From Escherichia coli (GTDB taxonomy: Bacteria; Pseudomonadota; Gammaproteobacteria; Enterobacterales; Enterobacteriaceae): DNA of 64,000 nt. The notes beneath the pieces were generated by a model. It was not told the DNA's origin and ran no database searches. It worked only from the letters and a program-made list of their open reading frames with translations. Shown here in pieces: positions 54,384 through 55,358 of this stretch (within the stretch, counting starts at the first letter, position 1; the number at the start of each line of letters is the position of its first letter). The stretch lies in the NCBI RefSeq assembly GCF_965641715.1, contig NZ_OZ282453.1, one strand, 5' to 3'. A program made the translations under genes and the position numbers.

Positions 54384-54812
54384 ATGGGTTTTCGTAGCGC
54401 ATCAATTCTTACGTTGATTATTAGTGGGATTATTATCGGGTGCACTGATGCTGTATCGACAAATTATCATGACCGTACATCATATTACTCCGATAAAGCA
54501 ATAGAGACACAGTATGTGAGTTCATCTGAACGTACTTCTGATGTTAGTGAGGATATCCGTCTGTATGCCCATCAAATCAAGAGCGCCATCGAAAAACAGT
54601 TCGGGGATGCGAGTAAGTATTCAGGAAAAGAGTGTACACTGAGAATGCATATGGCCCCGAATGGCCTTCTACTGGAGGTTAAAAGAGAAAGTGGAGACCT
54701 CGATTTATGTCGTGAAGCGATGAATGCGATAAAGAATGCTGATATACCTGCCCCCCCTTCGCCGGAAGTATATAAAGTATTTCAAAATGGGGTGCTGGAT
54801 TTTAAACCCTGA
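54384..54812 (+). CDS. prophage lipoprotein with TolA C-terminal domain III-like fold
   Basis: 142-aa ORF with ATG and SD (gtgaggaaaa); signal peptide plus lipobox (IIGC); C-terminal about 85 aa (YAHQIKSAIEKQFGDASKYSGKECTLRMHMAPNGLLLEVKRESGDLDLCREAMNAIKNADIPAPPSPEVYKVFQNGVLDFKP) closely parallels recalled TolA domain III. Confidence 0.75.
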   Translation: MGFRSASILTLIISGIIIGCTDAVSTNYHDRTSYYSDKAIETQYVSSSERTSDVSEDIRLYAHQIKSAIEKQFGDASKYSGKECTLRMHMAPNGLLLEVKRESGDLDLCREAMNAIKNADIPAPPSPEVYKVFQNGVLDFKP

Positions 54813-54962
54813 TATTTATTGTTTTGTAATAAACGGTTTCGGCTTAGGTTTGTTCTGACACAACTACGGCACTGAGCTAAATTTAGCGGATAGTCAGCTC
54901 TGAGCCAGTGGCGGACGTAACAACTACTATTGCTGAGATTTTAATGGATTGAGGAGCAAGAA

Positions 54963-55358
54963 GTGGGATTAAAGAAAATCGTTATGTTGACTTTTTGGGT
55001 CGGTTTTGTTGCGGGATGCACACCTTTACACCCTTCAGATTGCCACAAAACTACTGCTACAGGTAGTTGCAGTTCAGGACGCTGGGATGATCAGGATGAA
55101 TGGGGGGCGCAAGCGCGGGGAATCAGAGCTGCAATTAATGCCAAACTTGATGAGCCGCATAACTGGAAAGGGAAAAAATGCAGGTTGCATATGGAATTCT
55201 CTCAGGATGGCACGGCGTTAAAAATATCTACCAGTAACGGTGATAAAGCCTATTGCGAAGCGATAAAGTCCGCAGCTCATAAAGCCAAATTTCCGGCCTT
55301 CAACAATCCGGAAGTCTACAGAGATTTTCAGAAATCTGGCTTTGACATGCGAGGTTAG
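54963..55358 (+). CDS. second, more divergent TolA-III-like lipoprotein (paralog of 54384..54812)
   Basis: 131-aa ORF with GTG start after SD gaggag; lipobox VAGC; C-terminus ...KGKKCRLHMEFSQDGTALKISTSNGDKAYCEAIKSAAHKAKFPAFNNPEVYRDFQKSGFD aligns with the first copy. Confidence 0.7.
   Translation: MGLKKIVMLTFWVGFVAGCTPLHPSDCHKTTATGSCSSGRWDDQDEWGAQARGIRAAINAKLDEPHNWKGKKCRLHMEFSQDGTALKISTSNGDKAYCEAIKSAAHKAKFPAFNNPEVYRDFQKSGFDMRG

Follow-up and report, generated by a model that had tools for sequence, protein, structure and literature searches.

TolA domain III lipoproteins in the late region of a Qin-like Escherichia coli prophage as possible decoys for TolA ligands

A stretch of 64,000 nucleotides of Escherichia coli DNA (contig NZ_OZ282453.1; hereafter the window) holds a Qin-like lambdoid prophage, in whose late region two adjacent open reading frames (ORFs) on the + strand, ORF1 (54384-54812) and ORF2 (54963-55358), encode what their sequences suggest to be lipoprotein-type precursors, predicted to reach the outer membrane. 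TolA's C-terminal domain (TolA domain III, or TolA-III) is the sole recognisable domain in either protein. We tentatively propose, giving the idea nearly even chances, that both proteins are outer-membrane-tethered decoys that capture TolA ligands, namely colicin domains, filamentous-phage domains and the N-terminus of TolB, away from TolQRA.

Both proteins combine a lipoprotein signal peptide with a TolA domain III

Each protein carries a lipobox of the pattern [LVI][ASTVI][GAS]C without aspartate at position +2. The N-terminus of ORF1, MGFRSASILTLIISGIIIG-C20, ends in the lipobox IIGC, with threonine at +2 followed by aspartate (IIG-C20-T-D), while that of ORF2, MGLKKIVMLTFWVGFVAG-C19, ends in VAGC, with threonine at +2 followed by proline (VAG-C19-T-P). 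The lipobox cysteine is kept in all intact alleles of both genes. An earlier reading made from the DNA letters alone (the sequence-only reading) had called two lipoprotein signal peptides at this site, and this is borne out. ORF1 (142 residues, from an ATG start to a stop ending at 54812) can be divided into a signal peptide (residues 1-19), the putative lipid-bearing Cys20, a variable linker (21-54) and TolA-III (55-142; nucleotides 54546-54809). ORF2 (131 residues, from a GTG start to a stop ending at 55358) consists of a signal peptide (1-18), a highly conserved Cys-loop segment (19-48) that begins with the putative lipid-bearing Cys19, and TolA-III (~50-131; nucleotides 55110-55355).

In phmmer searches against Protein Data Bank (PDB) sequences, residues 55-142 of ORF1 aligned with residues 334-421 of E. 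coli TolA at 59% identity (E=5e-28), and residues 50-129 of ORF2 aligned with the same protein at ~31% identity (E=5e-9). The Pfam family PF06519 (TolA_C) was matched by both proteins (E=3.2e-23 for ORF1; E=1.5e-14 for ORF2). The likeness to TolA-III that the sequence-only reading had proposed is thus far above chance, and the TolA string that it quoted is identical to the PDB sequence. The disulfide-forming cysteine pair of TolA is invariant, and both proteins end exactly at the TolA C-terminus. A comparison at the level of structure, which that reading had called for, gave the same answer. AlphaFold2 models of the domains, with predicted local distance difference test (pLDDT) values of 92-98 for ORF1 and 85-94 for ORF2, superimposed on E. 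coli TolA-III with root-mean-square deviations of 0.5 Å over 88 columns (ORF1 on 2x9a_B, crystallised with the g3p of IF1) and 1.2 Å over 86 columns (ORF2 on 3qdp). The corresponding target-normalised template-modelling scores were 0.96 and 0.91, and the fold of both domains is the one seen in solved structures of TolA-III, among them the co-crystals with g3p and with colicin A.

Although ~88 C-terminal residues of TolA are homologous to ORF1 and ORF2, with fold, disulfide and C-terminal end in common, TolA has an inner-membrane anchor (domain I) and a long helical domain II. Both are lacking in ORF1 and ORF2, which have a lipoprotein signal peptide and a linker of ~30 residues instead, so that coupling to TolQ-TolR would be impossible. 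Moreover, TolA is encoded in the tol-pal operon, whereas ORF1 and ORF2 lie between the Q/tRNA genes and the holin gene of a prophage. Judged by sequence, then, ORF1 and ORF2 are not TolA proper. Consistent with this, the TolA equivalog model NF007065 was matched over its last ~90 positions only, at 107.8 bits (ORF1) and 53.7 bits (ORF2) against a cut-off of 213. TIGR02794 has a cut-off of 59.45 bits, which ORF1 passes (75.6 bits) by virtue of its C-terminal part alone and below which ORF2 falls (47.2 bits). The profile that fits both proteins over nearly their whole length is PHROG 5772 (residues 6-142 of ORF1, E=1.6e-62; residues 4-131 of ORF2, E=6.7e-65; profile positions 1-128 of 128 in each case), a family already clustered among phage proteins as being of 'unknown function', without a described mechanism.

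Both genes are intact and under purifying selection

In the RefSeq annotation, made with the Prokaryotic Genome Annotation Pipeline (PGAP), only the last 87 codons of ORF1 (54553-54812) form a feature, a tolA pseudogene described as 'incomplete; missing N-terminus'. This label, which looks wrong, was probably assigned because the C-terminal domain alone passes the TIGR02794 cut-off. Taken at face value, it would make ORF1 a non-functional remnant of a captured tolA, a view with which the many frameshifted or truncated ORF1 copies in public assemblies would also agree. However, the gene is a complete 142-codon frame with a signal peptide, a lipobox and a Shine-Dalgarno site (GAGG, 6 nucleotides 5' of the ATG). 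Diverged alleles, only 65-74% identical, retain exactly 142 residues and the lipobox cysteine, and the PHROG 5772 match extends over the full length of the protein. Compared with a 66%-identical allele, ORF1 has a ratio of nonsynonymous to synonymous substitution rates (dN/dS) of 0.36 over its whole length; taken separately, the TolA-III part gives 0.25 and the linker 0.57, values that point to purifying selection. The integrity of the reading frame and these ratios rule out the remnant explanation, which we regard as effectively excluded.

Most of the frameshifted copies differ at a run of seven cytosines inside ORF1 (54751-54757). Loss of one base there gives 157-residue variants with a different sequence in place of the last 18 residues, to which the ligand-binding edge strand belongs. 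Frameshifts at this run may represent sequencing error, decay, or slippage or phase variation.

For ORF2, RefSeq places the start at ATG 54984 (124 residues), 21 nucleotides downstream of GTG 54963. The RefSeq start has no Shine-Dalgarno site, while GTG 54963 is preceded at 6 nucleotides by GAGGAG. Sequence comparison confirms GTG 54963 as the start and the PGAP start as 21 nucleotides too late, because plasmid-borne ORF2 alleles have an ATG aligned with this GTG, because ~40 nucleotides before it, including TGAGGAG, are conserved in prophage, plasmid, Enterobacter and Serratia copies, and because the shorter protein loses the Lys-Lys n-region of the signal peptide. Against the copies from pO157, Enterobacter and Serratia, the dN/dS of ORF2 is 0.08-0.14, so that purifying selection on this gene, as gauged by these ratios, is stronger than on ORF1. 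The most constrained part is the mature N-terminal segment, CxPLHPSxCHKTTATGSCSSGRWDDQDEWG, with a dN/dS of 0.01-0.10; the same Cys-loop segment has AlphaFold2 pLDDT values below 50 and is apparently disordered.

TolA-III lipoproteins occur in phages, plasmids and chromosomes

Of 5426 complete E. coli genomes, 772 contain DNA at least 99% identical to ORF1-ORF2. DNA and protein searches of a phage collection returned one deposited phage record only, mEp460_ev081, and comparisons among sequenced phages are therefore uninformative. The sequence-only reading had taken ORF1 and ORF2 for tandem paralogs diversified against different ligands, a view that does not hold. The two proteins are only 28% identical, which indicates separate lineages without a recent tandem duplication, and ORF1-type genes also stand alone in other lambdoid prophages, in the interval between Q and the holin gene, together with genes for TfpB, an AraC-type regulator and a nanS-p-type esterase. 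ORF1-type genes were seen in E. coli only.

ORF2-type genes form 368 clusters at 90% identity, from Citrobacter, Enterobacter, Serratia, Klebsiella, Raoultella and Shigella. In Enterobacter, the gene is syntenic and chromosomal (6001-6435 of the examined loci), located between genes for glutathione peroxidase and a RidA-family protein, and in Serratia it is found on the chromosome between nrdDG and GmrSD/HEPN genes, the latter being typical of defence islands; neither site is a prophage. ORF2 alleles with ~88% identity are carried by ~600 plasmids of E. coli and Shigella. On pO157, which has an IncF replicon and is typed as non-mobilizable, the allele lies between psiB-psiA-hok and toxB (4815-5246 of the examined locus); on pSH275-2, an IncK2/Z conjugative plasmid of the MPF_I type, it lies directly 3' of the relaxase gene, near trbABC (6965-7396 of the examined locus).

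More distant relatives are found on 10-kb ColRNAI plasmids of Klebsiella, such as the 10,060-bp CP043367.1 of Klebsiella pneumoniae, where a gene for a 123-residue TolA-III lipoprotein is divergent from the cloacin, immunity and lysis genes. It overlaps by 4 nucleotides the gene for a secreted 121-residue protein consisting of a TonB C-terminal domain, which scores 32.9 bits with TIGR01352 (cut-off 27.1); the pair occupies 3687-4420. The two products represent outer-membrane-proximal hooks of both import systems, Tol and Ton. The TolA-III gene of this cloacin plasmid has matches in several hundred plasmid records from Klebsiella, of which many are small and mobilizable.

When 1.84 billion cluster representatives were searched with a profile (E<=1e-3), 760 clusters at 50% identity were obtained. 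Among the best 150 of these, 91 representatives are complete proteins of at most 170 residues, and a regular expression detected a lipobox in 53 of the 91; by eye, many of the remainder also show a lipobox, and a few bear signal peptides of the ordinary kind. The 150 best cluster representatives contain no TolA closer to the ORF1 domain than the E. coli-type protein (59%) that could be named as its donor. Among the further contexts sampled, one is a phage-like contig and another a chromosomal locus flanked by clcB and dmsD homologues. The TolA-III lipoprotein family is thus not prophage-specific but extends over phages, plasmids and chromosomes. Where the sequence-only reading had spoken of prophage lipoproteins, the location of ORF1 and ORF2 stands, while a restriction of the family to prophages is contradicted by the chromosomal genes of Enterobacter and Serratia.

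A possible decoy function and its alternatives

For the decoy reading, which the sequence-only reading had already put forward and which is plausible, we infer the localisation, the ligand binding, the expression and the phenotype along the following lines. Threonine, rather than aspartate, at position +2 would direct ORF1 and ORF2 to the outer membrane. A free TolA-III domain on a linker of ~30 residues would then lie just beneath that membrane, at the site where colicin translocation domains and the g3p of filamentous phages would first emerge and where TolB-Pal is located. As this domain keeps the fold of TolA-III, edge strand at the C-terminus included, it should accept the same ligands by strand augmentation (g3p-N1-type domains, group A colicins through their TolA boxes, and TolB through its N-terminus); being unlinked to the TolQ-TolR-TolA motor, it would not allow the captured ligands to be pulled in. 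The lysogen would be expected to tolerate Tol-dependent bacteriocins, filamentous phages or both and, at high dose, to suffer some weakening of Tol-Pal.

The binding surfaces that this proposal invokes are known from TolA itself. The TolB N-terminus and filamentous-phage g3p-N1 bind the edge strand of TolA-III by beta-strand augmentation (PMC7391070, PMC7066135), while colicin A binds the opposite side of the sheet (PMC7391070), and experiments have identified I25-V26-I27 of TolB as indispensable to its contact with TolA (PMC7066135). We modelled this interaction with AlphaFold2 (alphafold2_ptm) as fusions of TolB residues 22-35, a Gly/Ser linker and the mature protein, using alignments without homologue information over the peptide. 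In the ORF1 fusion, R24-I27 of TolB were predicted as an added strand, with a mean pLDDT of 82 for the first ten residues and values below 50 for the linker; in the ORF2 fusion, R24-I27 likewise formed a strand, at a pLDDT of ~50, and neither fusion was accompanied by a control peptide. The TolA-TolB structure was released in 2020. The training cut-off of alphafold2_ptm is, we assume, 2018; if so, the docking is a prediction and not recall.

The layout of the two genes suggests that they are expressed in the lysogen. A sigma-70 promoter-like site (54325-54354, + strand; TTGAGC, an 18-nucleotide spacer and TATAAT) lies 30 nucleotides upstream of the ORF1 start and, with 10 of 12 consensus matches, is one of the joint best two in the scanned region. 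A terminator-like GC-rich hairpin, AGCTCGCTACGGCGAGCT followed by TTTTAT (55484-55509, + strand; a consensus match only), closes the two-gene unit before the holin gene. As the sequence-only reading had stated, the unit lies between the Q/tRNA genes (Q at 52169-52990, then the tRNAs) and the lysis cassette, which begins with the holin gene at 55610. Its G+C content is 0.40-0.46, compared with 0.49-0.52 in the flanking Q and lysis genes, and the slot between Q/tRNAs and holin holds other cargo in related prophages. Taken together, the promoter-like site, the Shine-Dalgarno sites, the terminator-like hairpin, the low G+C content and the position between modules suggest a moron-like unit inside the late transcript, whose expression Q-dependent read-through would further raise in a burst at the late stage of induction.

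This location in the late transcript, after Q and before the holin gene, could also be taken to mean that ORF1 and ORF2 are lysis or release accessories. As late genes of pR', expressed after Q antitermination, they would supply a burst of tethered TolA-III that titrates the TolB N-terminus, shuts Tol-Pal down, loosens the outer membrane and promotes blebbing, thereby aiding spanin-mediated lysis or the release of progeny and cargo. The docking of the TolB N-terminal strand onto ORF1 would suit such a role, as would the fact that the cloacin plasmid, which carries a relative, also needs to release its bacteriocin. Exported TolA-III makes E. coli leak periplasmic protein, according to the passage of PMC6195910 that cites Wan & Baneyx 1998 and Levengood-Freyermuth 1993, and this leakage, too, is in keeping with it. 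However, the unit has a promoter-like site and a terminator-like hairpin of its own before the holin gene, and the prophage already possesses a complete holin-endolysin-spanin set. Close relatives of ORF2 stand alone on chromosomes and plasmids with no lysis genes nearby, and on the cloacin plasmid the TolA-III gene is divergent from the cloacin-lysis operon. We therefore consider a lysis accessory quite improbable.

A somewhat better, though still unlikely, alternative is that these proteins are envelope-physiology factors, i.e., outer-membrane-anchored paralogues of the TolA head that modulate Tol-Pal, or TolB, Pal and CpoB, in homeostasis or stress tolerance, and that travel on mobile elements as general fitness genes. 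The synteny seen for the chromosomal genes of many Enterobacter genomes and of Serratia, the family member between the clcB and dmsD homologues, and the size and diversity of the family are all compatible with this, as is the very strong selection (dN/dS ~0.1), which includes an N-terminal segment without a counterpart in TolA. What it explains less readily is a patchy distribution in which mobile elements abound, from the prophage slot and the phage-like contig to the bacteriocin plasmid and the conjugative plasmids, and the presence of the pair at such high identity in only a fraction of complete E. coli genomes. The pairing with a secreted TonB C-terminal domain is likewise hard to explain by Tol-Pal physiology alone.

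We favour the decoy reading over these alternatives because of the co-occurrence with a TonB head on a bacteriocin plasmid, the carriage on I-type plasmids and plasmids with an IncF replicon, and the moron-like layout. Ff and If1, both TolA-dependent phages, use F and I pili as their receptors. The retained fold, the lipoprotein architecture kept across diverged alleles, the purifying selection and the chromosomal copy beside GmrSD/HEPN genes also speak for decoys. Periplasmic TolA-III fragments also give colicin tolerance, and periplasmic fragments of the TonB C-terminal domain are a parallel precedent. The engineered TolA-III fragments (Levengood-Freyermuth et al. 1993; Wan & Baneyx 1998; both cited in PMC6195910) likewise place a free transducer head in the periplasm, with a dominant effect on the envelope. 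They are soluble, overexpressed laboratory constructs, whereas ORF1 and ORF2 are natural, predicted to be lipid-anchored, under selection and located on mobile elements.

Small outer-membrane lipoproteins of mobile elements that block the entry of phages or colicins are known in Cor (HK022, phi80, N15), Llp (T5) and the plasmid protein TraT, some of them encoded by accessory genes. Cor and Llp bind and inactivate the outer-membrane receptor FhuA; in contrast, ORF1 and ORF2 would imitate a periplasmic co-receptor domain instead of blocking a surface receptor. No sequence relation to Cor, Llp or TraT emerged, the Pfam and PHROG matches being only to TolA and PHROG 5772. In cells infected by filamentous phages, g3p occupies TolA, resulting in exclusion and colicin tolerance. 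The TolA-III/g3p-N1 surface (PMC7391070) would be common to that mechanism and to the one proposed here, but with the roles exchanged: there the ligand saturates TolA, here the ligand would be sequestered by a TolA-III copy.

Several observations weigh against decoys. The affinity between TolA and TolB is low (dissociation constant 40-250 µM; PMC7066135), so that a decoy would need a high local concentration, and the TolB docking models were made without a control peptide or inspection of contacts. The promoter and the terminator around ORF1-ORF2 are consensus matches only; the upstream regions of ORF1 and of the 66%-identical allele failed to align, and the promoter-like site is not conserved in front of the latter. 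Neither protein matched any model of PADLOC-DB 2.0 at E<=0.1. A full-text literature search, whose coverage leaves out most subscription journals, yielded no paper describing these proteins and no colicin, phage or other phenotype for any family member. Finally, the conservation of ORF2-type genes in ordinary metabolic neighbourhoods of the Enterobacter chromosome fits a housekeeping role in the envelope equally well, and the constrained N-terminal Cys-loop segment of ORF2 is not accounted for by a simple decoy model.

A broader version of the proposal would accommodate that segment. Mobile elements of the Enterobacterales might widely deploy tethered TolA-III heads and secreted TonB heads as broad-spectrum decoys, aimed at bacteriocins that depend on Tol or Ton and at filamentous phages whose entry route is a conjugative pilus. 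In such a setting, ORF2 could be a bivalent trap for TolB, with its Cys-loop segment, SSGRWDDQDEWG, offering the TolB beta-propeller a linear epitope, as colicin TolB boxes do, and with TolA-III taking the TolB N-terminus. A phmmer search of the ORF2 N-terminal segment against PDB sequences returned nothing meaningful, and any likeness to a colicin TolB box would be loose; we regard this extension as doubtful.

Other features of the prophage

The prophage, which is integrated beside rspB, contains integrase, dicB, a cI/cro-type region, Q, and lysis, terminase, portal and capsid genes. The Q-type late antiterminator gene (273 residues, + strand) forms the upstream edge of the accessory slot; it is called 'antitermination protein' in RefSeq, in a 100%-identical region, and the identically placed gene of related prophages matches the Pfam family Antiterm. 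Just after Q, a terminator-like hairpin (53071-53090, + strand; a 7-bp stem with 5 GC pairs, followed by TTTTATT) is a candidate tR', by consensus match only. Two tRNA genes follow on the + strand. The first (53134-53209), with a CAT anticodon, was assigned to Met by ARAGORN, and the identical gene is annotated as tRNA-Ile in RefSeq by PGAP; it may encode a lysidine-modified tRNA-Ile2, a type that lambdoid prophages often carry downstream of Q. The second (53310-53386) is a tRNA-Arg (TCT) according to both ARAGORN and RefSeq. Between the tRNAs and the promoter-like site, the slot holds a small ORF of 117 codons without a family match (53497-53850; unannotated in RefSeq) and a hydrophobic mini-ORF of 43 codons annotated as DUF3927 (53886-54017).

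Downstream of the hairpin that closes the two-gene unit, the lysis cassette comprises, all on the + strand, an essD-like holin gene (55610-55825), a DUF1327 gene (55830-56141), a lysozyme gene (56138-56671) and an Rz-like spanin gene with an embedded lipoprotein ORF (56668-57165); on the identical region RefSeq names these essD, ydfR, rrrQ and rzpQ, respectively. In the mEp460_ev081 record, the holin gene (7411-7626 of the examined locus) is annotated as 'Phage tail fiber protein'. A 'TolA' remark on a ciprofloxacin-induced gene of CP-933O (PMC11125564) concerns a gene annotated as tail fiber, and was not used. Automated labels in this late region are unreliable. On the 3' side of the spanin genes, an AT-rich stretch (57100-57900; G+C content 0.30-0.37) bears a gene for a cspI-like cold-shock protein (57526-57741) and is a further accessory unit of this region.

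Implications

There are consequences for annotation: ORF1, intact and under selection, is flagged as a tolA pseudogene by PGAP, and the start of ORF2 is placed 21 nucleotides late. The family is large and resides on medically relevant elements, and the decoy hypothesis can be tested directly by standard colicin and phage assays. If it is true, roughly one in seven complete E. coli genomes would carry an unrecognised tolerance determinant to group A colicins and/or filamentous phages, and the same would hold for numerous plasmids with virulence or resistance genes, among them pO157 and the 10-kb ColRNAI cloacin plasmids of Klebsiella; this would be relevant for bacteriocin- and phage-based therapeutics. 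It could also help to explain how conjugative plasmids offset the vulnerability to phages that their pili create. Furthermore, the imitation of a periplasmic co-receptor, as opposed to the modification of a surface receptor, would be a new principle of exclusion.

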